A model generated the notes under the pieces. The model had not been told where the DNA came from, ran no database searches, and saw only the letters and a program-made list of their open reading frames with translations. 42,805 bases of DNA from Escherichia phage Shy, in sequence record OR996328; one strand, 5' to 3'. Shown here piece after piece: positions 3,626 through 34,891 of this stretch. Positions within the stretch are counted from its first letter, which is position 1; every line of letters begins with the position of its first letter. The position numbers and the translations under genes are program-made.

Positions 3626-3627
3626 TC

Positions 3628-4728
3628 ATGGCACGCGTATTATTGAATCGGAACCCGCCAAACGCGAAACGTTTGTTCGACGTAATCACGCGCCAACAAA
3701 TCTACGTCGAAGGCGTAAAGCTGTCGGAAGCGAACACGTTTCGCAAAGTGGTTCAAGAACTGTCGGACGAATTCCGCCAACTGTTAAGCCGCTTGCAATA
3801 CAGTACGCTTGACGGAATGACCAAGGCGGAACTTAACCGGTTTATCGTGACGCTTCGTAAATCGCAATCGAAGATTTACAACAAGTACACGCAAGACCTG
3901 TTAGACCAACTTTACGCATTCATGCGAACCGATAAGCGCGTATCGCTTCGCGTTTACGGCGCGTTGGTTTCGGATAGCGACGACGTAACGGAAGACGAAG
4001 CCGACGACCTGTTGCAACAGTCGAAAGACGAATCGTTGTTCGTGCCGCTATTCGGTTGGGCGTCGCTTGCGCGGTCGGAAGACGGCGATTCGCGGTTGTG
4101 GTCTACCATCGCGAACAACCCGATTCCGGCTAACGGCCTGTTGCTTGGCGCGTTTATCGCCGGGTTCAGCAAGTCGGCGCAAGCCGCAGTCGAAAACCTG
4201 ATTCGTCAAGGTTGGGCGAATCAATGGACGGTTAACCAGACCATCGCCGCGATTACGGGCAACCGTGGCGCACTCGACCGCATTTACAGCCAGAACACCG
4301 CAGTAACAGCAACCGTTATTCAGCATATCGCCCAAAGCGTCGGGGCCGCCGTGTCGTCGGCCTTTGCGGGGCGGTATCGTTGGGATTCGATAATCGACAA
4401 TGCGACGACCGAAATTTGCCGGGGGCGTAACCAACGTGTTTACGTCTTCGGAAGGGGGCCACTTCCCCCGGCGCATATTCGGTGCCGTTCGCGCATTACG
4501 CCGATTTTCGGAAACGGCCCGACGGATGGTGACGGAAGCGACGAAACGTTTTATACTTGGTCGCGTCGCCAACCTGAAAGTTTCTTGCGCGACGCATTTA
4601 CGAAAGAAGCGGCCGACGCGCTAACCAGCGGTAAGGCACGCGCAAAAGACTTCACCGAATACCGGGCCGAAAAACCCGTATCGGTTGAACAGTACGCCGA
4701 CAAAGTGTCGGATATTTTGAAACGCTAA
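3628..4728 (+). CDS. head morphogenesis protein (Mu gpF / SPP1 gp7-like)
   Basis: 366 aa. It contains TTEICRGRNQRVYVFGRGPLPPAHIRCRSRITP, which matches the Cys...PP.H..CRC signature of the Phage_Mu_F family. It follows the portal gene. Confidence 0.8.
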   Translation: MARVLLNRNPPNAKRLFDVITRQQIYVEGVKLSEANTFRKVVQELSDEFRQLLSRLQYSTLDGMTKAELNRFIVTLRKSQSKIYNKYTQDLLDQLYAFMRTDKRVSLRVYGALVSDSDDVTEDEADDLLQQSKDESLFVPLFGWASLARSEDGDSRLWSTIANNPIPANGLLLGAFIAGFSKSAQAAVENLIRQGWANQWTVNQTIAAITGNRGALDRIYSQNTAVTATVIQHIAQSVGAAVSSAFAGRYRWDSIIDNATTEICRGRNQRVYVFGRGPLPPAHIRCRSRITPIFGNGPTDGDGSDETFYTWSRRQPESFLRDAFTKEAADALTSGKARAKDFTEYRAEKPVSVEQYADKVSDILKR

Positions 4729-4744
4729 CGAAAGGTAAACCGAA

Positions 4745-5446
4745 ATGGCGCTGAAACTCAAAATCACTAAAGAAGTTTTCGACAAGCTGTCGGATGCCGT
4801 CAAAGCCGAATACTTCGAAAAAGATGGCGAATACCATCTTGACGTTGACGGACTGGAAGATACCGGCGCACTTCGCCGCGCAAAAGACCACGAAGTCAAA
4901 CAGCGTAAAGAAGTCGAAGGCAAGTTGCGCGACGCCGAAGAACAAATCGCAACGCTTACCAGCGAAGTTCAAGGCAACGCCGCCAAGTTCGATAAAGAAC
5001 TGAAAAAGCAACTTGGCGAGAAAGACGGCCAGTTGACGAAGGCGAACGCGTTTATCCAATCGACTTTGGTTGATTCGGTCGCAACCAAAATCGCAACCGA
5101 AATCAGTACCGCCCCGGCGTTGCTGATTCCCCACATTAAGGCCCGTCTTACCGCTGACCTTAGCGGCGACGCCCCGGCTACCAAAGTCCTTGGGGCCGAT
5201 GGTAAACCGTCCGAAACGACCATCGAACAACTTACCGCCGAATTTGTTGCCAACAAGGATTTTTCTGCTATTATCCGGGGTAACAAAGCGTCCGGGGGCG
5301 GTGCCCCTAAGACTGGCGCTTCTGTCAACGGCGGTGCCGGTAAGTTCAACAACGATTCCGACAAACCCGCCGACCTGTCGAAACTGAGTCCCCGCGACCT
5401 TGCGGCCCGGATTCAGGCGCAGAAGGCGGAAGCAAACAACCAGTAA
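4745..5446 (+). CDS. scaffolding protein
   Basis: 233 aa, charged and helical (K/E/A-rich), located immediately upstream of the major capsid gene. Confidence 0.6.
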   Translation: MALKLKITKEVFDKLSDAVKAEYFEKDGEYHLDVDGLEDTGALRRAKDHEVKQRKEVEGKLRDAEEQIATLTSEVQGNAAKFDKELKKQLGEKDGQLTKANAFIQSTLVDSVATKIATEISTAPALLIPHIKARLTADLSGDAPATKVLGADGKPSETTIEQLTAEFVANKDFSAIIRGNKASGGGAPKTGASVNGGAGKFNNDSDKPADLSKLSPRDLAARIQAQKAEANNQ

Positions 5447-5461
5447 TAAGGACGCTATATC

Positions 5462-6430
5462 ATGGCACTTTCCGACCTCGCGGTATATTCCGAATACGCC
5501 TATTCTTCGATGACCGAAGTTCTGGCGCAGCAAATCGAACTGTTCAACGGCGCTTCCGACGGCGTTATCGTTCTGGTTCCGGCCGCGCATCAAGGCGACT
5601 ACTCCGACGAAGCCTTCTTCGCGAAGATTTCCGGTCTGGTTCGCCGCCGTAACGCTTACGGTTCCGGCGCAATCGCACAAAAGACCCTGAAACATCTGGT
5701 CGATACGTCCGTTAAGGTCGCGGCCGGTACTTCCGAAATCCGCCTTGACCCCGGCCAGTTCCGTTGGATTCAACAGAACCCCGAAGTCGCTGGCGCGGCA
5801 CTCGGTCAACAACTGGCGGGCGACCTGCTGGCCGATATGCTGAACACCGCTATCGGTTGCGGTGTTTCGGCCCTGTCGGCGCAATCCGCCGTCGTCAAAG
5901 ACGATTCGACTTCCGACCCGTCTTTCGTCGGCCTGACCGAAGCCGCTGGCCTGTTCGGCGACCGTCAAAACGCCATTCGTGCATGGATTATGCATTCGAC
6001 GCCGGTTACTAAACTGTACGTCAATGCGCTGACCAACGCCGAAAACCTGTTCAAGTACGACACGGTTAACGTTATCCGTGACCCGTTCGGCCGTCTGTTC
6101 GTCGTGACCGACTCGCCGTCGCTGCAATGGTCGGTAACTACCCCGTCCCCGGCTTCCGGCTTTATGTCGCTGGGTCTGGTACAGGGCGGTATCTACGTCG
6201 GTCAAAACAACGACTTCGACGCCGCCGAAACCGTGGCAACCGGTGACGAAAACATCAAACGGACTTACCAAGCCGAATGGTCGTACAACGTCGGTATTCA
6301 GGGCTTCGCATGGGACAAGCCGAACGGCGGCAAATCGCCGACCGATGCGGCGCTGTTCACGGCGTCGAATTGGGATAAGTATTCCACTTCGCACAAAGAC
6401 CTTGCGGGCGTTCTGTACAAGACCAAGTAA
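5462..6430 (+). CDS. major capsid protein
   Basis: 322 aa, follows the scaffold gene. A strong stem-loop terminator/attenuator at 6445-6466 follows it, which is typical of the most abundant virion protein. Confidence 0.7.
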   Translation: MALSDLAVYSEYAYSSMTEVLAQQIELFNGASDGVIVLVPAAHQGDYSDEAFFAKISGLVRRRNAYGSGAIAQKTLKHLVDTSVKVAAGTSEIRLDPGQFRWIQQNPEVAGAALGQQLAGDLLADMLNTAIGCGVSALSAQSAVVKDDSTSDPSFVGLTEAAGLFGDRQNAIRAWIMHSTPVTKLYVNALTNAENLFKYDTVNVIRDPFGRLFVVTDSPSLQWSVTTPSPASGFMSLGLVQGGIYVGQNNDFDAAETVATGDENIKRTYQAEWSYNVGIQGFAWDKPNGGKSPTDAALFTASNWDKYSTSHKDLAGVLYKTK

Positions 6431-6444
6431 GGGCCGCGACGGGG

Positions 6445-6466
6445 CGGGGGCTTCGGCCCCCGTTTT
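6445..6466 (+). terminator. rho-independent terminator/attenuator after capsid gene
   Basis: CGGGGGC (6445-6451), TTCG tetraloop, GCCCCCG (6456-6462), then TTTT (6463-6466). Confidence 0.7.
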
Positions 6467-6493
6467 CGCAACTAACCGACGGGAATTACGGCA

Positions 6494-6991
6494 ATGAATC
6501 TCAAACAACCGAAAATCATTTTCTTTATCGACGGGCCTGTTCCGTCGGAAGCCGAAAAGCTGGACGCTTTCGATTTGGGCGTCCCGGTTCAGTTCCGCAA
6601 CGCGCAACACGTTAGCCGCATCGAAGAAGAATGCGACGGCGTTACCGGTCACGTACCCGAAGCGTACAAAGACCATCCGACGGCCGAAGACGCTTTGAAG
6701 GCGTACAAAGCCGAAGTGAAGAAAGCGCGTGCGAAACTGCTGGAAGTCGGCGGCAAAGCCCCGAAACCGGGCGAATCGACCGAAACCGGTAACAAGACCG
6801 GCGACGGCGACAAAAAGGACGGCCAGCAAGGGGCCGCAGCGGGCCAAGGTGACGCGAACGACGGCAAGGGCGGGCCTACCCCTACCCCGACCGAAGAAGA
6901 CCCCGCCAAGGCCGCCGCAGCCGCCGCAGCGGGCGCACCTGCAACCCCGGCTAAAGGCACCCCGGCCGCTAATGGCTGGAAACAGAACTAA
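6494..6991 (+). CDS. hypothetical head-region protein with A/P/G/T-rich low-complexity tail
   Basis: 165 aa. The first ~55 aa resemble the N-terminus of the next ORF (KIIFFIDGPVPSEAE...RN...CD...VPEAYKD). The C-terminal half is low complexity (GDGDKKDGQQGAAAGQGD...PTPTPTEEDPAKAAAAAAAGAP). Confidence 0.55.
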   Translation: MNLKQPKIIFFIDGPVPSEAEKLDAFDLGVPVQFRNAQHVSRIEEECDGVTGHVPEAYKDHPTAEDALKAYKAEVKKARAKLLEVGGKAPKPGESTETGNKTGDGDKKDGQQGAAAGQGDANDGKGGPTPTPTEEDPAKAAAAAAAGAPATPAKGTPAANGWKQN

Positions 6992-6996
6992 GGCCG

Positions 6997-7032
6997 TGCC
7001 CGATGCCGACGGCTTATTGTGGGCATCGGGCA
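6997..7032. other. 11-bp perfect inverted repeat (hairpin) between head genes
   Basis: TGCCCGATGCC (6997-7007) pairs with GGCATCGGGCA (7022-7032) across a 14-nt loop, with no U-tract. It embeds a TGTGGGCA copy at 7018-7025. Confidence 0.6.
7018..7025 (+). repeat. TGTGGGCA motif copy
   Basis: ttatTGTGGGCAtc, intergenic, within the hairpin at 6997-7032. Confidence 0.9.
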
Positions 7033-7052
7033 ATTGACAAGGAATCTATTCG

Positions 7053-22712: not shown

Positions 22713-22748
22713 TAGCCCCGCCAGCGCAAGCCAGCGGGGCTAATTTTT
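22713..22748 (+). terminator. rho-independent terminator of the structural operon (convergent junction)
   Basis: TAGCCCCGC (22713-22721), 12-nt loop, GCGGGGCTA (22734-22742), then ATTTTT. It overlaps the stop codon of the minus-strand polymerase gene. Confidence 0.75.
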
Positions 22749-24882
22749 ACCATCCTTCGCCCGACCCTTCCAAGTCTTCGAACAGGTCTGGACGCTTCGC
22801 CTTCTTCGGCCCGTAATAGCCCATATCCGACAACATATCTTCGGCCATGTTCGTATACTGTTCGAAATCCATATCGGCCGGGAACGCGTCGGGTAAATCC
22901 ATAATCGGGCAAGCGCCTTCGCTATTGCCGACCGTGTTACCGTTCATAATGTAGTTAATCGTTCCGGTAACGCCTTTCGCGTAGTACCAGCGAATCGCCT
23001 TGCCCAAGAATAAGCCGTCTTTTTCGGCACCGCCCTTCACGTTCTTAACCGTTACGAAATCCTTGATATCGCGGCAACTGTTGACCGTTTCGGCAATGGC
23101 CTTACCTTCGATAAGGAAATGCGCAATCGCCTTCGCGCAAATTTCGTTGGTCGGTTGTTTCTTCAACGTGGTTTCGCCGAACACGCCTTTACCCTTGTAC
23201 AGCTTGTCGAACTTCGTACCTTCGGGGAACGTATCGACCCAAGATTTCGACGCCTTGTCGTAATGCTTTTTCAACGCGATATAGTTGTTAACGTCGCGGC
23301 TGAATACGCCTTTGTATTGGGTTTCTTCGGTTTCAAAACCGGTTAGCTTTTCCCATGCGGCGATAATTTCGTTAAGCTGTTCGTACTGGCTTTCGTGCGG
23401 CTTAATAACAATACCGTCGGTGTTCGCCGAAATAACCTTGATGCCCACAAGTTCCAGCATTTCAATTAGCATCAACAACGAAAGTTGGCCGGTCAACGTG
23501 GTTTGAATCAGAAGGTCGGGCGAATACAACGCCGAATACTTCGACCCCAACTTACCGAACGAACCGTTAATCGTAATCTTCAAGCTATCGGCGATAATCT
23601 GGTTAAGTTCTGCGACCGACAGGTCGGAAGACTTCGACAGCCCCTTCGCTTCAAGACGACGCGCAACGATGGTCTTATATACGGTAAGGAACGCCGGGCC
23701 AAGGTGTTTCGGGAAATATCCGTTATTGATAATGATATTCGGGTAATACGATGCAACGTCGCGGTCAATCAACAAGTAACCGTCGCGGGCGTAATGCGCC
23801 GCGCAATTCTCGGTCGAATGCAGACCGCCGACGCCCATTGTATAGACCGAATCGCCGATACGGATTTTCAGACCTTTAAGGAACGACGATTTCGGCCGCC
23901 CTTTTTCGCTGATTACGAACGGTGAATCGACCAACCGTTGCAATATCTGTTGCAACATCGGCGTTTGAAAGTGAACGAAAGCCGGGGGAACGTAATAGTA
24001 TTCGGTGCCCGGCGCAATCTTCGGTTTGCGGGCATAGTATCCGTTCAACTTTTCGCATTCCGCCGACAATACGTGTTCGGCGATTTGCGCATCGGAAAGC
24101 GAACGAAGGTCTTGCCCGTATTCGGTCGAAAGCTGTTCGCGCAACTTGATTTGCGGTTCTAAGTCCTTGAACAGTAGCGCCGTGTTATCCAAGTCGTTTA
24201 CGCAATAGAACCTAACGTTAACCGCCTGTTCGCGGGTCAATATGGTTTCCGGTTCGTATGGCAAGTCTTGCATACGTGGCGCGTGCAAACGCCCCGCATA
24301 CGTCTTCAACGACGCTTGAAGCGGGGCGACTTCGATTAGGTCAACGTGGTTAAACTCCGGTATCCGAATGTTGAATTCTTTTTCTATGTCTTCTTTGCGA
24401 TACGACTTGCGGTCTTTGGTTTCTAGTCCGTAATCCGCGTCGCCTTTAACCGGCCGCTTGTTGTCGTTAATAAGCCGGTTCGTAACGTATTTAAGTACGT
24501 TCATTGGCGCACCGGCCAGCGCAAGGAACAGTAAGAACCGGTCGAACTTGATACCGTTAAAACTGATATGCCGGAACGAATGAACGACCCAATTAAGTTT
24601 GTTCAAATCCGCTTGGCTGAATTGTGGGCAATCTGGCGACAGTTCGAACGTAACAACCTTGTTCGTTGCGATATCCTTAAATGCGATTAGAAAATAGTTC
24701 CAATAACATTCGATATCGAAAACCATAGTACCGCCCCGCGCTTCCCATAGTTCGCGGTCGGTAAATTCAACGTAAGGCCGGTTAATGATTGATGGGAAGG
24801 TTAAGACTTTCGGCACAAACGGGCCTTTCGTCTTCACCTTCGACCGCTTATTCGGCGCTAAATCCAAATCATCGAAGAACAT
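22747..24882 (-). CDS. DNA polymerase, family-B-like, with 3'-5' exonuclease motifs
   Basis: 711 aa. FDIEC is Exo I-like. DVASYYPNII resembles motif A (D..SLYPS), KITINGSFGKLG resembles motif B (K...NS.YG), and NTDGI resembles motif C (DTDS). The C-terminal RPDLFEDL is a possible clamp-binding peptide. Confidence 0.8.
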   Translation of the reverse strand: MFFDDLDLAPNKRSKVKTKGPFVPKVLTFPSIINRPYVEFTDRELWEARGGTMVFDIECYWNYFLIAFKDIATNKVVTFELSPDCPQFSQADLNKLNWVVHSFRHISFNGIKFDRFLLFLALAGAPMNVLKYVTNRLINDNKRPVKGDADYGLETKDRKSYRKEDIEKEFNIRIPEFNHVDLIEVAPLQASLKTYAGRLHAPRMQDLPYEPETILTREQAVNVRFYCVNDLDNTALLFKDLEPQIKLREQLSTEYGQDLRSLSDAQIAEHVLSAECEKLNGYYARKPKIAPGTEYYYVPPAFVHFQTPMLQQILQRLVDSPFVISEKGRPKSSFLKGLKIRIGDSVYTMGVGGLHSTENCAAHYARDGYLLIDRDVASYYPNIIINNGYFPKHLGPAFLTVYKTIVARRLEAKGLSKSSDLSVAELNQIIADSLKITINGSFGKLGSKYSALYSPDLLIQTTLTGQLSLLMLIEMLELVGIKVISANTDGIVIKPHESQYEQLNEIIAAWEKLTGFETEETQYKGVFSRDVNNYIALKKHYDKASKSWVDTFPEGTKFDKLYKGKGVFGETTLKKQPTNEICAKAIAHFLIEGKAIAETVNSCRDIKDFVTVKNVKGGAEKDGLFLGKAIRWYYAKGVTGTINYIMNGNTVGNSEGACPIMDLPDAFPADMDFEQYTNMAEDMLSDMGYYGPKKAKRPDLFEDLEGSGEGW
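23442..23449 (-). repeat. TGTGGGCA motif copy (minus strand)
   Basis: Minus-strand context aactTGTGGGCAtc, sense strand of the polymerase CDS. Confidence 0.9.
24623..24630 (+). repeat. TGTGGGCA motif copy
   Basis: gaatTGTGGGCAat, antisense to the polymerase CDS. Confidence 0.9.
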
Positions 24883-25901
24883 TAGTTTCGAATCCCCGCT
24901 ATTGCGCCCCGGATGCCGTCACCGAAGAAGAACGCTTGACCATTATACGACGTAAAGTCGGCCGACAACATATACGGTTCAATCATCAACAGCAATTTGC
25001 CGTTATACGCTTGGCCCGCTGGCAACCCTTCGACTTCGTATTGCGCCCCGTCCAAGCCGTCGGGATGCGACCGCATTTCGCCTTTTGCGAAGTATACGTT
25101 ACCCGTTGCGGTAAACGAAGCAACGGCCTTAACCGCGTCGAAGAATCCGTCGGGAAGCGGCCACGGGTTAACGTTCTTGTTCAAAATGGCGTCAACATTC
25201 GGCCAGCATTCCGAAAAAAGTTGCGTTTTGATAAACGATTCGTCGTCGAACCAGAACGTCGCGGAAGACGCCGAAAAGCCGAAACCGACTAAATCGCGTT
25301 CCGACTTTGCGATAACTTGCGCGGCGGCTTTCGGGATAACCAAGCCGGGCGGCAAGTCGATTCCGTGCCAGAACTCCAACACGACGATTTTGTTAGTCGC
25401 GTATACGGAATTCGCTTGCAGCAACAAAGACGCTTCAAGAACCGACGCCGCGCCTTCGGTAGCCAGTGCCATAACGGCCGCGAAGCCTTCTTTAATGCGG
25501 TTGTCGATTACGGCGATATTCGGGTCGGGATACGTGGTCGGCATCGACGTTAAATCGACGCACGGTACGACGGCCTTAAACTTGCCCGACTGAATCGTTA
25601 TCCGGCTGTTGTCGCCTTGGGTAATGCTGAACTGTTCCCCACATTTACCAAGGGCCGCCGCCAGCAAGTCGGATTGCGGGCACGCGGTCAAGTCTTCTTC
25701 GATGCGTCGGCCGATGGTCAATTGACCGTCGAACGCGCTAATCGTCTGGTTCTGTATGACTACGTGTTGTTGGTAGATATGACCGCCCTTCTTTTGGGCG
25801 GCCGATACGAATTTCAGGGCTTCAAGGAAACCAGCGGCGGCCGACGTTTCCTTAGCCTTGCGGGCGCGACTGCGACCCTTAGCGGCTGTTGCTTTCGCCA
25901 T
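24882..25901 (-). CDS. beta sliding clamp homologue (DnaN-like)
   Basis: 339 aa. ITIQSGKFKAVVPCVDLTSMPT aligns with E. coli beta MLVRSGRSRFSLSTLPAADFPN. FIKTQLFSECWPNVDAILNKN aligns with IFTSKLVDGRFPDYRRVLPKN. It is translationally coupled to the polymerase gene (TAATG). Confidence 0.6.
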   Translation of the reverse strand: MAKATAAKGRSRARKAKETSAAAGFLEALKFVSAAQKKGGHIYQQHVVIQNQTISAFDGQLTIGRRIEEDLTACPQSDLLAAALGKCGEQFSITQGDNSRITIQSGKFKAVVPCVDLTSMPTTYPDPNIAVIDNRIKEGFAAVMALATEGAASVLEASLLLQANSVYATNKIVVLEFWHGIDLPPGLVIPKAAAQVIAKSERDLVGFGFSASSATFWFDDESFIKTQLFSECWPNVDAILNKNVNPWPLPDGFFDAVKAVASFTATGNVYFAKGEMRSHPDGLDGAQYEVEGLPAGQAYNGKLLLMIEPYMLSADFTSYNGQAFFFGDGIRGAIAGIRN

Positions 25902-26115
25902 GTTCGGTACTCCGGTCGATTTCGGTAATCGCGGCTTGAAGGTAGTTCGCCATATCTAGGGCTTCTTCCAACGCGTGTTGCAACCATTCGCGAAGGGTCA
26001 ACGGGTTATTATCGGTCGTTACGCCGTATTTGGCAAGTCCGACGATAGACCGTTGCAACAGCATTTCGCGGTTCTTTTCGACGTTGCTGTCGGGCGATAC
26101 GGTAGGGTTTTGCAT
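25879..26115 (-). CDS. hypothetical protein (78 aa)
   Basis: SD TAAGGA lies 6-7 nt upstream. The helical segment GLAKYG...EWLQHALEEALDMANYL is faintly reminiscent of all-alpha NTP pyrophosphohydrolases, so no function is called. Confidence 0.5.
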   Translation of the reverse strand: MQNPTVSPDSNVEKNREMLLQRSIVGLAKYGVTTDNNPLTLREWLQHALEEALDMANYLQAAITEIDRSTEHGESNSR

Positions 26116-26124
26116 AACTTATCC

Positions 26125-26355
26125 TTAGAATGGAATGTCGAAGTCATGTTGCGCACAACCGTTAACCAATACTTCGGGCGGCGGTAATGCGTCGTAATAG
26201 TTGCATTTCGGCGGCGTATCCTTGTTCTTAGGGCAACCGTTTTGCGACCAGTGTTCGCAGTTCAAGCAAGTTTGAAGAATCATTGCGCCTTGCATTTCAA
26301 CTTGCAATGCGATTCGCAATTCGGCCTTACGGCGTAGTTGTTCGTTAATATTCAT
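26125..26355 (-). CDS. small Cys-rich protein ending in an SSB C-terminal-tip-like DFDIPF
   Basis: 76 aa with CLNCEHW...GC...C...C. The C-terminus ...GCAQHDFDIPF* was verified on the DNA (GAC TTC GAC ATT CCA TTC TAA on the minus strand). Confidence 0.6.
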   Translation of the reverse strand: MNINEQLRRKAELRIALQVEMQGAMILQTCLNCEHWSQNGCPKNKDTPPKCNYYDALPPPEVLVNGCAQHDFDIPF

Positions 26356-27988
26356 AGCTCATAATCTCCGGGTACTTTTTGTTAACCCAAACCTTGACCT
26401 TTGACGGAATCCGAAGATTCGGCGACCAGTCTACGGCCTGTTGTGCGGTCGGGAATTCGTCGCCGTCGTAACCTGTACGCGCCCGCCACCAATCCCGCGC
26501 CCGCTTTCCGGCGAATCCGCTATGTTCCAAACAAATAAATTCCTTGAACATCCGAATACCGCAGAAATACGAAACTTTCATCATATCCGGCGCACCTTCT
26601 TTTTGATGCAACGAATACAAGACCTTTTGAACGTCGAAGTATTCGACTTGCGGGAAGTCCGACCGCAATAACGCTTCTTCCGATGCACCGGCAAACAACT
26701 TCGGTTCGAACTTGAATTCGTGACCACAACCCGACGGGGTAGGGAACGGCGAACCGCCGCACCAACGGGCCGACGCGTGGTTGTAGCAACCGCAATTGTC
26801 GCAGATACGAACCGGCGCATCGCCGCCACCTTTACCGGGGCGCTTCGGAATAACCGGGTCGTTGATTGGGCCAAGCCGACGGGTATTACCGGCGAAGTCC
26901 AATACCAGACAATTCGACTTGACGTAATCGAAGCCGGGAATATATGCGGCGAAGTCCGGGTTATATGGACGCGTTCCACGACCCAGCATTTGCACCCAAA
27001 GGCCCGGCGAAAGCGTCGGCCGCATCATGCCGATAAGGTCTATCGGGGGATGGTCAAAGCCGGTCGTAAGTACGCCGTTGTTCACGATGCAACGCACGTT
27101 GCCCTTTTTGAACTGCGCGATACGGTCGTCGCGTTCTTTTGTGGGCATCTTGGAATGAACCGCGACCGCATCAATACCGAATGCGACCATCGTTTCGGCA
27201 ACGTGTTCGGCGTGCTGAATACCCGACGCGAACGTTAGCCAGCAATTCCGGTCGTAACCCTTTTCGACCATTTCGGAAACGCATTTATACGTTATTTCGT
27301 TTTGGTCAACGGCGCGTTCTAACGCCCCTTGCGCGTATTCGCCGCCGTGCAAGCCGACCGACGACAAATCGAATTCGGTTGCGGTAGGCTTTGCGATAGG
27401 CGGGCACAAGAACCCTTCGGCCAACAGGCGGTTAAACCCGTCGATATCCGTAAGGTCGTAACAAATATCGGTGAAGATTCCGTTATCGGTTATATACCCC
27501 ATTTTCATACGATACGGGGTTGCGGTCAAACCGATAACTTTTAGGTACGGATTGATTAAACGCAAGTGTTCGATAATCTTGTTATACATTGACGATTCCT
27601 TGTCGCTTAACAAATGGCATTCGTCAATCAAGATTAAATCGCGGTGCCCGAAAGCGGCGACGTTATTAACAACCGAACCGACGCCACCAAAGATAATTGG
27701 TTGCGCAACGTCTTTCGCTTTCAGGCCAGCGGAATAAATACCGATAGGCGCACCGGGCCAGATTTGAACCAGCTTCGCGGCGTTCTGTTCGATAAGTTCT
27801 TTTACGTGCGTCAACATCAACACGCGTTGCCACGGCCAAGCCATGAAAACGCGGCGTATGAATTCGGCGATTACGATAGACTTACCTGTTCCGGTTGGTA
27901 ATGCGACAACGGGGTTCCCGTCGTTACCGGCTTCGAAATAGTCTTTGATGCTGTTAATCGCTTCGTCTTGATACCAACGCAATAACAT
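26345..27988 (-). CDS. superfamily-2 DNA helicase (DEAH-type) with C-terminal zinc-ribbon region
   Basis: 547 aa. Motifs read: ALPTGTGKS (Walker A), LIDECH (motif II), GLTATP (motif III), QMLGRGTR (motif VI), and CDNCGCYNHASARWC. Confidence 0.8.
   Translation of the reverse strand: MLLRWYQDEAINSIKDYFEAGNDGNPVVALPTGTGKSIVIAEFIRRVFMAWPWQRVLMLTHVKELIEQNAAKLVQIWPGAPIGIYSAGLKAKDVAQPIIFGGVGSVVNNVAAFGHRDLILIDECHLLSDKESSMYNKIIEHLRLINPYLKVIGLTATPYRMKMGYITDNGIFTDICYDLTDIDGFNRLLAEGFLCPPIAKPTATEFDLSSVGLHGGEYAQGALERAVDQNEITYKCVSEMVEKGYDRNCWLTFASGIQHAEHVAETMVAFGIDAVAVHSKMPTKERDDRIAQFKKGNVRCIVNNGVLTTGFDHPPIDLIGMMRPTLSPGLWVQMLGRGTRPYNPDFAAYIPGFDYVKSNCLVLDFAGNTRRLGPINDPVIPKRPGKGGGDAPVRICDNCGCYNHASARWCGGSPFPTPSGCGHEFKFEPKLFAGASEEALLRSDFPQVEYFDVQKVLYSLHQKEGAPDMMKVSYFCGIRMFKEFICLEHSGFAGKRARDWWRARTGYDGDEFPTAQQAVDWSPNLRIPSKVKVWVNKKYPEIMSYEY
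27140..27147 (+). repeat. TGTGGGCA motif copy
   Basis: ctttTGTGGGCAtc, antisense to the helicase CDS. Confidence 0.9.
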
Positions 27989-28960
27989 TTAGTCTTTCCC
28001 GTTGATAATTGGTTTCCATTGGTCGCAAGCCTGTTTAATTTCGGCTTCGCCGGGAATAATTGCGTTCCATTGTTCGCAAAACCATCGCGCATTATCAACC
28101 GGCCGGGCCTTCACGCACGAACGGCAATTCTTTTCCGGTAATTCGCCTTTGTGGCAAATGCCTTTATAGTTGCAAAACGAACAAGGAACTTGCGCCGGGC
28201 TGGCCGAAATCTTCGGCATTGGGGTTTGACTTGCGATAACCTTTTCGGCCTTCTGAAACTGTTGTTCGCCAAGGCGCATATTTAGCGGTACGATTTCGAT
28301 ATGCAAGTCGTCGTCGTTCTTGTTCACGTTCAAGTAAACAACGAACCGGAAGTTATACGCATAGCCATACGTCGAAGTTTGCGCGAAGTGTTGCGGCTTC
28401 GAAAGCATCATGCCTTGTTCGCCCAACTTGTTAAAACCGGCCCCGGTTCCGTTGGTCTTGAACTCGCACAACATCGCTTCTTCGATACCGTAATGCGGCG
28501 GCAACTTGATAATACCGTCAAGCGAACCGCCAAAGTGCCCCATTGCGCCGGAAATACGGAATTGCTTTTTCCCCTTGTCTTCTTCGCTGGCGTTCTGGTC
28601 GTCGAATTCCCACACTTGGCACCCGATGCCGCGCAAGTATTCGATAAAGGTTGCTTCTTCACGGTGCCCGCGCTGGAACAGGCGCAACATGCGGCCCGTA
28701 AACTTTTCATGTTTCGCCCAACGGAAATGCAACCAAAGTTTTTGCAAGCAATCGTCGCCGATAAGCGATGCGCCCAAATGCGAACGCGGGCCAGTGTCGT
28801 AAGTTGCGACCGCCCATTTTTCGATATCGTCTTTCAGTCGGTTAGCTACCAACTTAGCGACGCCGGGTTGCATTAAGTCAACGCTTACGCTTGCGGTCTT
28901 TTCCGCTGTTTCGTTCGTATTCGCGTTGTTCCCGAAGATTTCGTTTTGCTGTTCGCTCAT
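27989..28960 (-). CDS. PD-(D/E)XK exonuclease, Cas4/RecB-like, with Cys cluster
   Basis: 323 aa. DGIIKL...LCEFKT gives a D...E.K core. An N-terminal C (GDDC) plus C-terminal PCSFCNYKGIC fits a Cas4-type 4-Cys cluster. The start is uncertain: ATG 28960 overlaps the upstream gene by 83 nt, and the alternative ATG 28873 has a weaker SD. Confidence 0.65.
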   Translation of the reverse strand: MSEQQNEIFGNNANTNETAEKTASVSVDLMQPGVAKLVANRLKDDIEKWAVATYDTGPRSHLGASLIGDDCLQKLWLHFRWAKHEKFTGRMLRLFQRGHREEATFIEYLRGIGCQVWEFDDQNASEEDKGKKQFRISGAMGHFGGSLDGIIKLPPHYGIEEAMLCEFKTNGTGAGFNKLGEQGMMLSKPQHFAQTSTYGYAYNFRFVVYLNVNKNDDDLHIEIVPLNMRLGEQQFQKAEKVIASQTPMPKISASPAQVPCSFCNYKGICHKGELPEKNCRSCVKARPVDNARWFCEQWNAIIPGEAEIKQACDQWKPIINGKD

Positions 28961-29453: not shown

Positions 29454-30263
29454 TTAGCGCGGTTGGCCCCAAGCCGGTTGGCCGCCGCCGTTGCCTTGGT
29501 TCTGGTTCCAGCCGCCGCCGTTGCCTTGCTGCTGGCCTTGGTTGCCCTGCTGGTTGCCTTGCCAGCCGCCGCCCTGCTGGTTGCCCTGCTGGCCGTTGTT
29601 GCCGTTGTTCTGGCCCCAACCCGGATTACCGCCGCCGTTGTTCTGGCCTTGGTTCTGGTTGTTGCCGCCGTTGTTATCCGGCATCGGAACGTTGTTCGCG
29701 ACCTGCGATTGACCGCCCCAACCGGCGTTGTTACCGCCGTTGTTTTGCTGCTGGTTCTGGCCGCCGTTCTGTTGCTGGTTGCCCCACGAACCGCCGTTGT
29801 TACCGGCTTGGCCGCCGTTGTTCTGCGCGGCTTGACCGTTGCCGTTGGCGTGGCCGGGTTCGTTACCGTTGATATCGAACACGCGTTTTACGTCGGTGTA
29901 CTTGTTCGGGTTCGGTTCTTTCTGCAACCCGACTTCGACCATAAACGGGATGTTGTGCAACTGTTGCGAATCTTGCACTTGGAACACGCCGGTAACGTGG
30001 CACAAAGCCGACAACTGTTTGTGCGCGATTTCGACGGTTTGCGGGTTGGTATGGTACAGGTTCAGGCGGTAAGCGCCGACCGCGCCTTTGTTCGGGCCGT
30101 CGATAACCTGCAAGTCGAATTGCAGATAACCGGAATCGTTATCCTTGGTCGGCTTTACTTCCGACTTGATAGCGATAACCGGATGCTTGCCGATAGGCAA
30201 ACCGCCGACGCCTTGGGTCGGGTCTACGTTACGCGCGTCGAACGCTTGCATCAATTGAGCCAT
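29454..30263 (-). CDS. ssDNA-binding-like protein (DUF669-type position) with ~140-aa G/N/Q/W-rich disordered tail
   Basis: Start moved to the ATG at 30263 (SD AAGGTAG). The ~125-aa N-terminal folded part lies next to the Sak4-like ATPase, as in many phage recombination modules. The tail resembles the bacterial SSB linker (GGWGQ...) but ends ...QPAWGQPR with no acidic tip. Confidence 0.6.
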   Translation of the reverse strand: MAQLMQAFDARNVDPTQGVGGLPIGKHPVIAIKSEVKPTKDNDSGYLQFDLQVIDGPNKGAVGAYRLNLYHTNPQTVEIAHKQLSALCHVTGVFQVQDSQQLHNIPFMVEVGLQKEPNPNKYTDVKRVFDINGNEPGHANGNGQAAQNNGGQAGNNGGSWGNQQQNGGQNQQQNNGGNNAGWGGQSQVANNVPMPDNNGGNNQNQGQNNGGGNPGWGQNNGNNGQQGNQQGGGWQGNQQGNQGQQQGNGGGWNQNQGNGGGQPAWGQPR

Positions 30264-30319
30264 TTTGTTTCTACCTTTTCGAAAAGTTCCGACAATCAAA
30301 CCGTGTCGAATTCGGTTAT

Positions 30320-31000
30320 TTACGACATTGCCTTTTTGAACAGTGCCGTTAAATCTGGTTGTTCCAGTTCGTTAAGCCGACCGCTTCGGTCGCGTGGTGC
30401 GTTGATTCCGAAGGTTGGTGCGGTGCGAATCGCCAACACTTGCGATTGTACACCGGGAACCGTCGTCTTTGCAACATGCCCGATTAGGTCGTACAAGTGC
30501 GGAACCTGAATCCCCAATTCTTGACCGGGGAAATACGGTTTCTTAACTTGCGTGCCTTCTTCTTCGGCCATCGCCTGTTTCGCAATCAAATACGTGTGTT
30601 TCTGTTGCATGTAGTACAAGCCGGTAAGGTGGTCTAGTACCTTTCGGGCCATTTCGCCGTAAGCCTTGCGGCCGTCGCGGTTGCGTTTCAATTCGGCTTT
30701 CACGACGATTTCGGCCAGTTGCGACACTGAATCGACGCCGACGGTATCGAAACCTTTGGATTCATTCGACCGAAACAGCCAATCGAAGAATTCGTCGATT
30801 CGTTCAACCGTTGGCGCTTCCCATGCGGGAACCGTCGAACCGCGCATCGACAACATACCCGGTTCGGTAATCAGCAATACCGGGCGCGGTGCGGTGTTGA
30901 TAAGCGGCGTCTTACCCGAACCGGGCGGCCCATAGGCCAACATCTTGACGCCGTATTGCCGGGCGAAATCCCCGGCCGGTCGTAAGTCGCGTGTTTGCAT
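30320..31000 (-). CDS. Sak4-like / AAA_24 RecA-fold ATPase
   Basis: Walker A is LAYGPPGSGKTP. Start moved to the ATG at 31000 (SD AGGTGA 6 nt upstream). The track start at 31084 would overlap the upstream gene by 32 nt. Confidence 0.7.
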   Translation of the reverse strand: MQTRDLRPAGDFARQYGVKMLAYGPPGSGKTPLINTAPRPVLLITEPGMLSMRGSTVPAWEAPTVERIDEFFDWLFRSNESKGFDTVGVDSVSQLAEIVVKAELKRNRDGRKAYGEMARKVLDHLTGLYYMQQKHTYLIAKQAMAEEEGTQVKKPYFPGQELGIQVPHLYDLIGHVAKTTVPGVQSQVLAIRTAPTFGINAPRDRSGRLNELEQPDLTALFKKAMS

Positions 31001-31029
31001 AGTTTCACCTGAAAAGCCCGGCGGCCTAA

Positions 31030-31037
31030 TGTGGGCA
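31030..31037 (+). repeat. TGTGGGCA motif copy
   Basis: ctaaTGTGGGCAac, in the gap between the minus-strand genes at 31053 and 31000. Confidence 0.9.
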
Positions 31038-31052
31038 ACCGGGCGTCGTTGA

Positions 31053-31520
31053 TTAACGTTTTTCTTTCGGTGCGACGATTTCAACCGACGGCGTACCGTC
31101 CGAAATCTTCAACACTTCGTCAATAATTTTCTTGAACTTCGGTTCAAGTTCGTTGTATTCGGAAACCGAAAGTTCTGGCTTCCATTTGACCAGACGGTTC
31201 GCGACGAACTGACCTTCGGGGCCAACCTTTTCGATTTTCGACAGCGCCTTATCGACGGCATCGTCTTTGTTGTTCAGGCTGTAATTCAGCTTGAACACGG
31301 CTTTCAGCTTGTAGCCGTTCGCCAAATCGACGTTTTTGGTGCCGGAAAGACCGGCGTTGTTCGGAAACATGCGGTCTACCATCGCCTTACGGGCCGCCGC
31401 TTCAATCGCTTTGAAGTGCGCCAGTTGTTTCGCCGCCGCTTCCCATTCGCCGATAAGCTGGTCGTTGGTTTTGGTGGCTTCGGTCGGCTGGCCCCATGCT
31501 TGCGCGTTGTTGTCGGTCAT
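31053..31520 (-). CDS. hypothetical protein (155 aa) preceding the ATPase
   Basis: Coiled-coil N-terminus. It occupies the slot held by Gp157-like proteins upstream of Sak4-type ATPases; this is recollection and low certainty. Confidence 0.55.
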   Translation of the reverse strand: MTDNNAQAWGQPTEATKTNDQLIGEWEAAAKQLAHFKAIEAAARKAMVDRMFPNNAGLSGTKNVDLANGYKLKAVFKLNYSLNNKDDAVDKALSKIEKVGPEGQFVANRLVKWKPELSVSEYNELEPKFKKIIDEVLKISDGTPSVEIVAPKEKR

Positions 31521-32381: not shown

Positions 32382-32585
32382 ATGACCCAGCTTGTCACCG
32401 GTTGGCGGGATGAAACCCGGCAACTTCTGTTGAACCGCCCCCGCAACCTTGAATATCAGACCATCGCCAACGAAACCGGTTTGTCTGTTTCGTGGATTCG
32501 TGCGTTCGCGGTAGGCCAGTCGGATAACCCCGGCGTCGTCTTCGTCGAAACCCTTTATGTATATCTGAAAGCAAAGGCCAAGTAA
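32382..32585 (+). CDS. small helix-turn-helix DNA-binding protein
   Basis: Start moved to the ATG at 32382, because the SD AAGGA at 32367-32371 is 10 nt upstream. YQTIANETGLSVSWIRAFAVGQ looks like an HTH. It is TAATG-coupled to the primase gene. Confidence 0.55.
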   Translation: MTQLVTGWRDETRQLLLNRPRNLEYQTIANETGLSVSWIRAFAVGQSDNPGVVFVETLYVYLKAKAK

Positions 32586-34891
32586 TGTACCAGAACATAC
32601 CCGAAGAATTGCGGAATACGCCGCATTGGGTAGTTTGGCGTTACGAAGACACGCAAGCCGATAAGCCGACCAAAGTACCGTATTCGCCGCATAATTTCCA
32701 AACGCGGGCGAATGTCAACGAACCGTCAACTTTCGGAACGTTTGAGCAAGCCGCGCAAGCGTGCCAAGACGGATGGTTTAACGGCTTGGGCTTCGTGTTA
32801 ACGCAAAACGACCCGTATTGCTTTATCGACCTTGACGATACGGACGGCGACCCGAAATTGTACGCCGACCAAATCACGATTTACCAACGGCTAGGGTCGT
32901 ATACCGAACTTTCGCCAAGCGGTAAGGGCGTGCATATCATCGTAAAAGGTGCGTTGCCAGCCGGTCGCAAGCGTAACCGTATTGAACTGTATTCGTCCGG
33001 TCGCTTTATGACCATGACGGGTAATTTCCTTAACGGTTCGAACCCGGCTATCGAAGACCGTAACGATATGGTCAACGAACTTTATACCCTGTTGGGCGGT
33101 AAAGAAGAAAAGACATATTACGACGGCAACGAACCACAAACCAAGTCGGACGACGAAGTTATCGAAATCGCACGCAATGCGGAAAACGGCGCGAAGTTTA
33201 TGTCGTTGCATAACGGCGATTGGGTCGGCCTGTATCCGTCGCAATCCGAAGCCGACTTAGCGTATATCAACATTTTGGCGTTTTATACCCAAAACCGCGA
33301 ACAGCTTACCCGGATGTTCAAAGCGTCGCCGTTGGGCGCACGCGACAAACAAACGTCGATTCGTGGCGTCGGTTATATCGACTACATGATTAACAAGTCT
33401 TTCGACCGCATGTTGCCGCCAGTCGATACCGCCGCACTTATGAACCGGCTTAACGAAGCATTGCAACAAAGCCGCGTCGCAGTGCAACAGGAAGCCGCCA
33501 GCGTGCCGACCGCCGAATATATCCCCGAACCCCAAGGCGATACGCCGTACACCGTGCCGCCCGGCCTTATGGGCGAAATCGCGCAATTCATTTACCAGCA
33601 AGCGCCCCGGCCCGTACCGGAAATCGCGCTTACGGCCGCTATTGGCTTGATGGCTGGTATATGTGGGCGTGCGTACAACGTGTCGAATACCGGATTGAAC
33701 CAATACGTTATGTTGTTGGCCCCAACCGGCACCGGTAAAGAAGCAATCGCAAAGGGCATTGAAAAGCTAATGGGACAAGTGCAACGCACCGTGCCAGCGG
33801 CTAACGAATTCATCGGCCCGGCTGAAATCGCATCGGCGCAAGCGTTGGTTAAATATATGTCGAAAGGCCCGACCAGCTTTGTAAGCATCGTCGGCGAAAT
33901 CGGTATCGCATTGCAGCAAATGACCGACCCCCGCGCACCGACGCACCTTGTCGGCTTGCGCCGCCTGTTGCTTGACCTGTTCAACAAGTCCGGCGAAGGT
34001 TCGGTTTTGCGTCCGACCATCTATTCGGATAAAGAAAAGAATACGGCTTCGGTTCTGGCACCGTCTTACACGATGCTAGGCGAATCGACGCCCGAACGCT
34101 TTTACGAATTCCTTGATGAAATGATGATTAGCGAAGGTTTGTTGCCGCGCTTTACCATCATCGAATACCGGGGAAAGCGGCCGTCTATGAACGAAGGCCA
34201 CGCGTTCGTAATGCCGTCGAATGAACTGGTCGAACGTATGGCGCAATTGTGCGCGCAAGCGTTGATGCTGAACAACTCGCATAAAGCGGTGCATATCCGC
34301 GTATCGCCGGAAGCGAAAGAACTGTTCGACGCTTTCAACGAAGAATGCGACAAGCGAATTAACAACGCATCCCGCGAAGTCACGCGCCACCTTTGGAACC
34401 GTGCCCACATTAAGGCCATGAAACTAGCCGGGCTGGTTGCCGTCGGTTGTGACCCGTATAACCCGACCATTGATGCCAGCGCCGCCGCTTGGGCCTTGCG
34501 TATCGTTGAAGCGGATTCGAACAACCTGTTAGGTCGGTTCAATAGCGGCGAAGTCGGCCAGAACAGCAACGAAACCAAACAGCTTAACGAAATGGTACGC
34601 GTGATTCGCGAATACGTCGTTCGGCCTTGGTCGGAAGTGGCGTCGTATGGCGGGTCGGCAATGATGCACGGCGAACGCATTATTCCGTATCCGTACCTTC
34701 AACGTAAATTGGCTAACCTATCCGCTTTCAAAGGCGAACGAATCACGGCATCCGACGTTATCCGACGCACCTTGAAGACGCTTTGCGACCGTGGCGACAT
34801 TGCGGAATTGGGTAAAGGTCAATTGATTGATAAGTTCGGATTCCGTGGCGTTGCGTACATGATTTCGGCACCACGGGCGTTCGGCTTCTAG
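32585..34891 (+). CDS. bifunctional primase-polymerase (AEP) / helicase
   Basis: 768 aa. AEP motifs read: CFIDLDD and SPSGKGVHI. SQSEADLAYINILAFYT is a PriCT-type helix bundle. The C-terminal half has Walker A LLAPTGTGKE (DUF3987/D5-like helicase). Confidence 0.8.
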   Translation: MYQNIPEELRNTPHWVVWRYEDTQADKPTKVPYSPHNFQTRANVNEPSTFGTFEQAAQACQDGWFNGLGFVLTQNDPYCFIDLDDTDGDPKLYADQITIYQRLGSYTELSPSGKGVHIIVKGALPAGRKRNRIELYSSGRFMTMTGNFLNGSNPAIEDRNDMVNELYTLLGGKEEKTYYDGNEPQTKSDDEVIEIARNAENGAKFMSLHNGDWVGLYPSQSEADLAYINILAFYTQNREQLTRMFKASPLGARDKQTSIRGVGYIDYMINKSFDRMLPPVDTAALMNRLNEALQQSRVAVQQEAASVPTAEYIPEPQGDTPYTVPPGLMGEIAQFIYQQAPRPVPEIALTAAIGLMAGICGRAYNVSNTGLNQYVMLLAPTGTGKEAIAKGIEKLMGQVQRTVPAANEFIGPAEIASAQALVKYMSKGPTSFVSIVGEIGIALQQMTDPRAPTHLVGLRRLLLDLFNKSGEGSVLRPTIYSDKEKNTASVLAPSYTMLGESTPERFYEFLDEMMISEGLLPRFTIIEYRGKRPSMNEGHAFVMPSNELVERMAQLCAQALMLNNSHKAVHIRVSPEAKELFDAFNEECDKRINNASREVTRHLWNRAHIKAMKLAGLVAVGCDPYNPTIDASAAAWALRIVEADSNNLLGRFNSGEVGQNSNETKQLNEMVRVIREYVVRPWSEVASYGGSAMMHGERIIPYPYLQRKLANLSAFKGERITASDVIRRTLKTLCDRGDIAELGKGQLIDKFGFRGVAYMISAPRAFGF
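34402..34409 (-). repeat. TGTGGGCA motif copy (minus strand)
   Basis: Minus-strand context ttaaTGTGGGCAcg, inside the primase CDS. Confidence 0.9.

Follow-up and report, generated by a model that had tools for sequence, protein, structure and literature searches.

A divergent DnaN-type sliding clamp and a family-B DNA polymerase with two candidate clamp-binding termini in an Escherichia phage genome

The pairing of a replicative clamp gene with a DNA polymerase gene has been described for phages (PMC5313236), and the pair considered here, from the 42,805-nucleotide genome of Escherichia phage Shy (OR996328; this whole stretch is called the window), consists of a divergent DnaN-type sliding clamp and a family-B DNA polymerase (PolB). 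Kazlauskas and Venclovas, who in 2011 plotted homologues of polIII-beta from Pseudomonas phage 73 and BcepGomr, discussed viral clamps that lack a loader and proposed for them a tendency to be basic and to bind DNA without forming a ring (PMC3201878), and their 2016 survey noted that fewer than half of the viral processivity factors are accompanied by loaders (PMC4889955). The pairs of Lokivirus, Septimatrevirus, Queuovirinae, BcepGomr-like and related siphoviruses (for example gp23/gp22 of Acinetobacter phage Loki, Pseudomonas phage 73, and Escherichia phages 9g and CAjan) show the same family and gene order, and the window is a member of this set with no essential difference. We found no experimental work on this clamp–polymerase family in the literature searched.

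Four further systems can be compared with the pair. E. coli Pol II and its beta clamp, like the Halfdan proteins (the window is a copy of phage Halfdan, see below), combine a PolB that has a disordered C-terminal tail with a three-domain beta-type clamp; the Pol II tail ends in a motif of the Q-L-x-L-F type, which inserts into the beta cleft (PMC11139829), and the tails of the Halfdan family have the logo K-Q-[ALI]-[SKT]-L-F-COOH. The clamp of Halfdan differs from E. coli beta in being encoded by the phage, in its identity of 11-13% in structural alignments, in a core shorter by about 49 residues and in a basic N-terminal tail, whereas the Halfdan polymerase differs from Pol II by an extra N-terminal motif, by an RPDLF sequence without the Gln, and in that no cognate loader is encoded with it. 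The T4 system (gp43/gp45/gp44/62) shares with Halfdan a phage PolB, a phage-encoded clamp and, as proposed for Halfdan, a tether in the polymerase C-terminal tail, and the herpesvirus UL30–UL42 (UL54–UL44) systems share a PolB, the lack of a loader and a clamp-fold factor bound, as would be the case in Halfdan, via the polymerase C-terminus. In E. coli Pol III, alpha and epsilon fill both clefts of the beta dimer via two separate motifs (PMC11139829), whereas the Halfdan PolB has two candidate motifs on a single polypeptide, one at each end, and could be bivalent on its own.

The window represents the complete genome, in circularly permuted form, of Escherichia phage Halfdan (43 kb), which its GenBank record places in Lokivirus, with 99.3% identity to PP954860.1 ('Halfdan_Juelich_variant') and 98.5% to MH362766/NC_072811. 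The two genes are already labelled there, either 'DNA polymerase' with 'DNA polymerase processivity factor' or 'DNA polymerase subunit' with 'DNA polymerase III subunit'. A tblastn search of 50,697 phage records detected the clamp family in 302, with 25-50% identity and genomes of 39-64 kb, among them Septimatrevirus, Lokivirus, 9g/CAjan/JenK1, PaMx25-like and BcepGomr phages and siphoviruses of Rhizobium, Sphingomonas, Rhodobacter and Vibrio, and the label that it usually bears is replicative clamp, Pol III beta or processivity factor. The combination of clamp and PolB without a loader, which an earlier note on this DNA had regarded as an unusual replisome design, is thus common and already known, and the family was catalogued in 2011 and 2017. 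What this analysis adds is evidence, drawn from sequence comparison and predicted disorder, for terminal motifs that would tether the polymerase to the clamp. Taken together, we consider it rather probable that the two genes encode a self-contained processivity module, in which a ring clamp and a PolB tethered to it by two terminal motifs function without a phage loader. The two genes are:

24882..25901, minus strand: gene of the divergent DnaN-type (Pol III beta-like) sliding clamp, 339 aa, with its stop codon at 24882-24884
22747..24882, minus strand: gene of the family-B DNA polymerase, 711 aa, with 3'-5' exonuclease and polymerase, its ATG overlapping the clamp stop

Both open reading frames (ORFs) were found on the minus strand where the earlier note had placed them, with 339 and 711 codons' worth of protein, and the peptides that it quoted (FDIEC, DVASYYPNII, KITINGSFGKLG, NTDGI and PDLF) all lie at the expected nucleotides. 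The junction reads CGA AAC TAA TG TTC TTC, so that the TAA of the clamp and the ATG of the polymerase have one base in common (TAATG), and a GGGGA element is found 11-15 nt upstream, which bears out the proposed translational coupling. Because the stop and start codons overlap, the clamp would be made in step with the polymerase.

The relationship of the clamp to DnaN is established by fold comparison of a predicted model, the sequence similarity being at the limit of detection. At E<=1 the 339-aa protein gave no match to the DnaN family in Pfam, the curated DNA_pol3_beta profiles included, and a chance FnIII hit was the sole result; a single-sequence phmmer search against PDB also matched no clamp. 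PHROGs assigned it to phrog_947, 'DNA polymerase processivity factor' (E=9e-60). A profile of 53 clamp homologues gave one weak match in PDB, to the beta clamp 8dt6 (E=0.008), over the L-x-DG-x-YPNY segment, and hhalign to the authentic E. coli DnaN aligned the same region, over ~74 columns only (E=0.036, probability 1.4%). The AlphaFold2 model is of high quality, with a predicted local distance difference test score (pLDDT) of 91.3 and a predicted template modelling (TM) score of 0.85, and disorder is limited to residues 1-18 (pLDDT <50). In a Foldseek search with this model the top 50 matches were all bacterial beta clamps, aligned over the full length with TM scores of ~0.75 and 11-16% identity. 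As in DnaN, where a single chain has ~360 aa, the model shows three tandem clamp-fold domains. Based on the modelled fold and the Foldseek matches, the protein is a three-domain beta-type clamp, and not a factor of the PCNA/gp45 or UL42 type, in agreement with the earlier note, which had called it a DnaN homologue after aligning two stretches by eye. At such a low level of identity a by-eye match alone is no evidence. The second of these alignments, FIKTQLFSECWPNVDAILNKN with IFTSKLVDGRFPDYRRVLPKN, was nevertheless recovered by the profile search against PDB (8dt6) and by hhalign. The first, ITIQSGKFKAVV with MLVRSGRSRFSL, was confirmed by no sequence method and is consistent in topology only: in the model the ITIQSGKFKAVV stretch forms the last beta-hairpin of domain I, preceding the linker and then domain II with its first helix. 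The parts of the clamp referred to below are:

24885..25835, minus strand: structured core of the clamp, residues 23-339, three domains (from secondary structure and isoelectric point, pI)
25836..25901, minus strand: N-terminal tail of the clamp, residues 1-22, MAKATAAKGRSRARKAKETSAA, disordered, net charge +6, with an R-A-R-(K/R) core
25173..25226, minus strand: TQLFSECWPNVDAILNKN, counterpart of E. coli beta 234-251 (SKLVDGRFPDYRRVLPKN), from the profile search against PDB and hhalign

The assignment of the polymerase to family B rather than family A, made in the earlier note from its motifs, was backed by several lines of evidence. The protein matches PHROG 1252 (E=9e-200), and phmmer aligned its motifs B and C to the palm of human Pol alpha (E=1e-6). 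The AlphaFold2 model (pLDDT 87.6) retrieved PolBs in all of the top 50 Foldseek matches, including Pol alpha, the Tgo/KOD/9N enzymes, E. coli Pol II and that of African swine fever virus, over ~750 columns and with E-values down to 1e-16. Residues D56, E58, D375, S378, Y380, P381, K435, N439, G443 and D489 are invariant across 39 homologues, and the first Asp of motif C is replaced by Asn in this family. The 711-aa protein shows both the architecture and the motifs of PolB (ExoI DxE and motifs A, B and C). Its match to PF00136 stays below the gathering threshold (14.4 bits against a cut-off of 23 bits, E=0.017), and several homologues have a precomputed match to this profile. The motifs are located as follows:

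24706..24720, minus strand: ExoI motif FDIEC
23731..23760, minus strand: PolB motif A, DVASYYPNII, with the catalytic D375
23545..23580, minus strand: PolB motif B, KITINGSFGKLG
23410..23424, minus strand: PolB motif C, NTDGI, with the catalytic D489

In the polymerase model, long stretches of disorder are confined to residues 1-20 and 696-711 (pLDDT <50), that is, the two ends of the chain, and these carry the candidate tethers. Apart from the termini, the sole flexible segment is a loop in the exonuclease region, residues 141-160 (KRPVKGDADYGLETKDRKSY, 24403-24462), with pLDDT of 57-59.

24823..24882, minus strand: polymerase N-terminus, residues 1-20, MFFDDLDLAPNKRSKVKTKG, disordered MFFDD and basic linker, proposed tether
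22750..22815, minus strand: polymerase C-terminal tail, residues 690-711, YGPKKAKRPDLFEDLEGSGEGW, with basic linker, RPDLF and acidic flank
22780-22791, minus strand: PDLF, with L700 and F701 at 22780-22785

In most homologues the last folded block is followed by a short basic linker and then by an L-F or F-F pair. The logo of 108 distinct tails reads K-Q-[A/L/I]-[S/K/T]-L-F, with Q at -4 in 34/108, A/L/I at -3 in 53/108 and L at -1 in 82/108, and the F is the final residue of the protein in 46 of the 108 and the penultimate one in 22. The motif that binds the bacterial beta clamp is Q-phi-x-[L/M]-[F/L], with acidic flanks or a free carboxylate, the LF pair is able to bind alone, and delta does not have the Gln (PMC11139829). 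At the level of sequence, the family logo matches this motif. The KRPDLF-EDLEGSGEGW tail of the window polymerase appears as a derived version, in which D-L-F and the acidic flank are kept and the Gln is lost, and it lies at a disordered terminus. The likeness of PDLF to a clamp-binding peptide, pointed out in the earlier note, thus holds, PDLF being the local version of a family-wide K-Q-x-x-L-F tail that fits the consensus. Two further elements had been overlooked there, namely a basic N-terminal tail that is conserved in the clamp and the MFFDD motif at the N-terminus of the polymerase, which starts with MFFDDLDL followed by a basic linker, MFFDD being the family consensus.

In order to relate these motifs to the presence of the clamp, we compared 80 PolB loci from IMG/VR, using clamp and polymerase hidden Markov models (HMMs), with motif and clamp-tail classes set by HMM-coordinate criteria. 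LF-tailed PolBs have a clamp gene in 30 of 33 cases, nearly always directly upstream, against 22 of 38 for PolBs without the tail. The N-terminus shows a similar relation: the 53 clamp-linked PolBs, which carry the aromatic N-motif, align from a median HMM position of 18, and the 20 clamp-less ones from a median of 50, just before ExoI. One clamp-less PolB (L073) represents a second independent loss, in which clamp and motif are both gone. Clamp-positive PolB loci also carry a whole replication module (SF2 helicase in 33/33, Cas4 nuclease in 28/33, SSB in 23/33 and Sak4 in 20/33, counted over the PolB loci with enough flank), and the clamp-less clade lacks it. Within that clade, three polymerases (L049, L066 and L070) have tails that still contain LF or IF (NPELFLAAAL, QGTLFNRG and KQEEIFA), and judging from these sequences they might recruit the host beta clamp directly.

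The same clamp family was found directly upstream of a family-A polymerase (PolA) in two phages:

L086:4498-7493: locus of VpKK5 (Vibrio phage), clamp and PolA
L092: ~3501-6493: locus of M39 (Sulfitobacter phage), clamp and PolA

We considered whether the 'DNA polymerase A' label of VpKK5 could be a misannotation, and this was ruled out by its match to PF00476 (4e-68) and by the lack of a PolB-HMM match in VpKK5, a match that M39 does not show either. These PolAs begin with MSRFDAIGMFWEDIP...W-x-P-P-x-Y-L-P-N, and the same N-terminal module, of ~46 aa (R-x-D-x-I-G-phi-F-W-E-D...W-x-x-P-x-Y-L-P-x-L), opens the PolBs of CAjan, BcepGomr, PaMx25, MMDA13 and RHph_Y55. It is present in 119 of the 120 closest PolA homologues, with R3, D5, G8, W11 and D13 invariant in the alignment. 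An HMM built from PolA residues 1-50 matches 46/127 PolBs at E<1e-3 (the best at 2e-13, residues 1-47 to 1-46), and therefore the module is homologous in PolA and PolB. In a comparison of 79 PolA loci (L097-L175), retrieved by an alignment-based locus search, the clamp accompanies 46 of 50 polymerases with the N-terminal extension and 3 of 25 without it, and in these loci no other Halfdan gene follows the clamp consistently. Since the module is strictly conserved on a heterologous core and absent from clamp-less relatives in both families, it is likely to be functional. These sequence relationships imply an exchange of the catalytic core behind a clamp-plus-tether cassette that stayed conserved.

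The type of N-terminal motif tracks the subtype of the clamp and not the polymerase family, as far as the sequences reveal. N-termini of the FW-acidic type are found with tail-less clamps in 43/46 cases, and those of the FF-acidic or MLDxxGF type with basic-tailed clamps in 22/26, three of the four exceptions being clamps truncated at contig ends (descriptive p=1.5e-11 pooled, 3e-6 for PolB alone and 4e-5 for PolA alone). Some clamp-linked PolAs open with MFFDDEIAAL, MFFDDIDLGPLKKR or VFFDDVELVP, which is the Halfdan-type motif, and among PolBs the C-terminal LF tail goes with a basic-tailed clamp in 33/34. These pairings suggest two co-adapted cassettes, and the window phage has the second one, with basic-tailed clamp, MFFDD and C-terminal LF.

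These associations also bear on whether the clamp serves the phage polymerase at all. It could instead be a host-takeover or regulatory factor, either a decoy that titrates host clamp-binding proteins or the host loader, or a mobile activator of late genes such as gp45 of T4. Clamps are used in transcription both by T4 (PMC7892883) and by phage Mu (PMC12867686), and homologues of PolIII-beta are in some cases found in viruses that have no polymerase of their own (PMC4889955). However, the clamp lies directly upstream of a DNA polymerase gene, and is often coupled to it, in essentially all loci examined, it belongs to a replication operon, and the terminal motifs of the polymerase come and go with the clamp and co-vary with its subtype, which makes such a role very improbable.

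The electrostatics of the clamp speak to how it would hold DNA. In clamps, the six main helices line the channel. The core of the Halfdan clamp has a pI of 4.9 (family median 5.1, range 4.5-6.5) and a net charge of -10, close to the -11 of E. coli beta and unlike UL42-type factors. Its six main helices sum to +3 and the remainder to -13 (family means +4.2 and -12.4), with a positive sum for the helices in 96% of the family members and a negative one for the remaining core in 100% of them. This charge pattern is the ring-type signature, which Kazlauskas and Venclovas associated with ring clamps (PMC3201878), and by analogy the protein would form a head-to-tail dimeric closed ring. The N-terminal tail is also basic in the family, with a median charge of +4 across the 53 clamp homologues, and its R-A-R-(K/R) core is conserved among close relatives and missing from the more distant clamps of the CAjan/BcepGomr/VpKK5 type. 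A conserved tail of net charge +6 and the lack of a loader gene are what one could expect of a non-ring processivity factor of the UL42/UL44 type, a monomer or open C-clamp that binds DNA via the basic tail and needs no loader, which is the solution proposed for loader-less viral clamps in 2011 (PMC3201878). We consider this improbable for Halfdan: UL42 and UL44 have two domains, a non-ring form and a basic DNA-binding face, whereas the Halfdan core has three domains and is acidic, so that the two-domain fold, basic face and high pI of the herpesvirus-type factors are not what is found here.

In addition, a subgroup of the clamps (P0014, P0018, P0023, P0033, P0035, P0042, P0048, P0051, P0053, P0057 and others) has an extra N-terminal acidic segment ahead of the basic R-A-R-K tail, and its conserved [D/N]-[N/D]-V-P-[I/L]-P looks, from the sequence, like another short linear motif.

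The segment 234-251 of E. coli beta, to which TQLFSECWPNVDAILNKN corresponds, supplies P242 and V247 to subsite I of the peptide-binding cleft (PMC11139829), which lies between domains II and III and whose subsite I also includes T172, L177, V360 and M362. In the partial hhalign alignment the positions of subsite I correspond as T172->T169, L177->V174, P242->P234 and V247->I239, and at least 90% of the family keep T169 and P234; the C-terminal strand VVMP was matched to AI(M/A)G by eye only. This merely suggests that the hydrophobic floor of subsite I is kept in the Halfdan clamp, a cleft in which both terminal motifs of the polymerase would bind.

Given these observations, the module could work as follows. 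The clamp would dimerise, by analogy with bacterial clamps, into a ring that encircles DNA, as its acidic core and net-positive channel helices suggest. The C-terminal KRPDLF tail and the N-terminal MFFDD would hold the polymerase on the clamp, each connected through a basic linker to the folded part, and the two motifs could occupy both clefts of the dimer, possibly one per protomer. The basic linkers and the tail of the clamp may contact DNA.

The question of how such a ring is loaded follows from the lack of a loader gene. In agreement with the earlier note, which had found no loader resembling gamma/tau or gp44/62, 27 ORFs, among them every gene of any size, were scanned with Pfam and PHROGs and gave no clamp loader (gamma/tau, delta, RFC or gp44/62), and none is present in the deposited annotation. 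A six-frame Walker-A scan gave canonical P-loops only in TerL and in Sak4 (AAA_24, RecA-like), besides three chance matches in non-coding frames, and a phyletic-profile screen for a non-canonical loader was not discriminating, as the clamp-positive PolB loci have the whole replication module in common.

One answer, which the earlier note presumed and which we take seriously but hold to fall short of even odds, is that the phage brings only clamp and polymerase, and that a closed phage ring is opened and loaded by the DnaX (gamma/tau-delta-delta') loader of the host. An acidic, ring-type core argues in favour of a loader, which would have to be that of the host, and the electrostatics resemble those of loader-dependent clamps by the published criterion (PMC3201878). 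Besides the absence of a phage loader, the three-domain DnaN fold is retained, and the hydrophobic floor of subsite I, the site into which L73/F74 of delta plug, appears to be kept. On the other hand, the clamp shares only 11-16% identity with its bacterial counterparts, and clamps ~40-50% identical to one another occur in phages of alpha-, beta- and gamma-proteobacteria, whose loaders differ. Loaders and clamps from diverged bacteria often fail to cross-react, which also counts against host loading. Finally, the clamp and tether cassette has moved across polymerase families and hosts, as fits a host-independent unit.

Loader-independent assembly is the alternative that we favour weakly over loading by host DnaX, as a tentative reading slightly less secure than an even chance. 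The low identity to bacterial clamps, the spread over three proteobacterial classes, a cassette that is portable, genes that are translationally coupled and the recombination-type replication module (Sak4, nuclease and SSB) all argue for a self-contained unit. The ring could be threaded over DNA ends that arise from Sak4/exonuclease recombination-dependent replication, or its closure could be assisted by the polymerase and helped by the basic N-terminal tail of the clamp. A more far-reaching version, which we regard as speculative and unlikely as it stands, is a portable, loader-independent cassette of clamp and N-tether in two co-adapted versions, with the polymerase, through its two tether motifs, as its own matchmaker that closes a weakly dimeric beta-type ring around DNA in the absence of an AAA+ loader. 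The first version would comprise a tail-less clamp with G-phi-F-W-E-D...W-x-x-P-x-Y-L-P-x-L, and the second a basic-tailed clamp with M-F-F-D-D, plus the C-terminal Q-x-x-L-F on PolBs, both grafted onto A and B catalytic cores in siphoviruses of alpha-, beta- and gamma-proteobacteria.

Two nearly identical phages (~98.5-99%) have recorded hosts that belong to separate orders, E. coli K-12 MG1655 for Halfdan and Pseudomonas taiwanensis for the 'Juelich variant'. This reflects either an unusually broad host range or a wrong label, and it matters for models that invoke the host loader.

Several points weigh against a self-contained, tethered module. Both the formation of a ring and the binding of the motifs in its cleft are steps that we infer, and by the published criterion an acidic ring-type core is expected of a clamp that requires a loader, which would favour host loading. 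The basic subsite residues H175, R176 and R246 of E. coli beta are not conserved in the clamp, and the window RPDLF has neither the Gln of position 1 nor the aliphatic residue of position 2 of the binding motif, keeping positions 3-5 only. Regarding the co-occurrence, a neighbour-joining tree unites 18 of the 20 clamp-less PolBs in a single clade, so that few independent events took place within PolB and the co-occurrence p-values, being phylogenetically non-independent, are descriptive. Among the PolA hits, those lacking a clamp are also the most remote. One PolB (L075, on an 8-kb contig) and four PolA loci keep the N-extension without a clamp. In addition, the N-module lies only a few nt from the clamp gene, and recombination linkage could therefore add to their co-inheritance.

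The gene pair itself is ordinary, and its value lies in offering a tractable model for loader-less ring-type viral clamps, a question that has stood since 2011. Halfdan plates on E. coli K-12 MG1655, and therefore the host loader genes (dnaX, holA and holB) are open to genetic manipulation; the proteins are small, and the terminal motifs pinpoint F2/F3 and L700/F701 of the polymerase and residues 2-22 of the clamp. If the assembly is indeed loader-independent and transferable between polymerase families, it would represent a minimal modular processivity device, of relevance to the evolution of replisomes and to the engineering of processive polymerases, and non-canonical N-terminal clamp-binding modules would be added to the repertoire of beta-clamp ligands.

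The pair is part of a leftward replication operon, which also holds DUF3268, DUF7173 and MazG, and a primase is encoded on the opposite strand:

25879-26115, minus strand: ORF of 78 aa, phrog_11184, overlapping the clamp start by 23 nt
26125-26355, minus strand: ORF of 76 aa, Cys-rich, zinc-finger-like, phrog_23504, between helicase and clamp
26345..27988, minus strand: superfamily 2 (SF2; DEAD/ResIII) helicase, 547 aa, upstream of the clamp, from Pfam and PHROGs
27989-28960, same leftward operon: Cas4-like nuclease
29454-30299, same leftward operon: SSB/DUF669
30320-31084, same leftward operon: Sak4 (AAA_24)
32585-34891, plus strand: primase, 768 aa, with an archaeo-eukaryotic primase (AEP)-type N-terminal region, an NrS-1-polymerase-like helix-bundle (PF22763) and a DUF3987 helicase-like C-terminal part

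Given the AEP-type composition of the primase, the replisome mixes an archaeo-eukaryotic-type primase and a PolB with a bacterial-type clamp. The 78-aa and 76-aa ORFs that precede the clamp are poorly conserved beyond close relatives (4/33 and 2/33 loci). In Queuovirinae-like and related phages (L084-L089 and L091) the clamp–polymerase pair lies directly downstream of a 7-deazaguanine DNA-modification cluster (QueC/QueD/FolE/DpdA-tgt), and in Halfdan it comes after the SF2 helicase, the pair being the constant unit.

Elsewhere in the window, Pfam and PHROGs identified terminase, portal, capsid and tail proteins, a VRR-NUC protein and a dCMP deaminase. An antisense ORF of 793 aa (4652-7033, minus strand) overlaps the scaffold and major capsid genes (4745-5446 and 5462-6430, both on the plus strand), and on that antisense strand PP954860.1 has a 674-aa 'hypothetical protein' and no capsid gene. 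As the plus-strand ORF 5462-6430 clearly encodes the major capsid protein (Pfam Gp13-like, E=1.5e-123), the deposited antisense call is, from the sequence, probably spurious.

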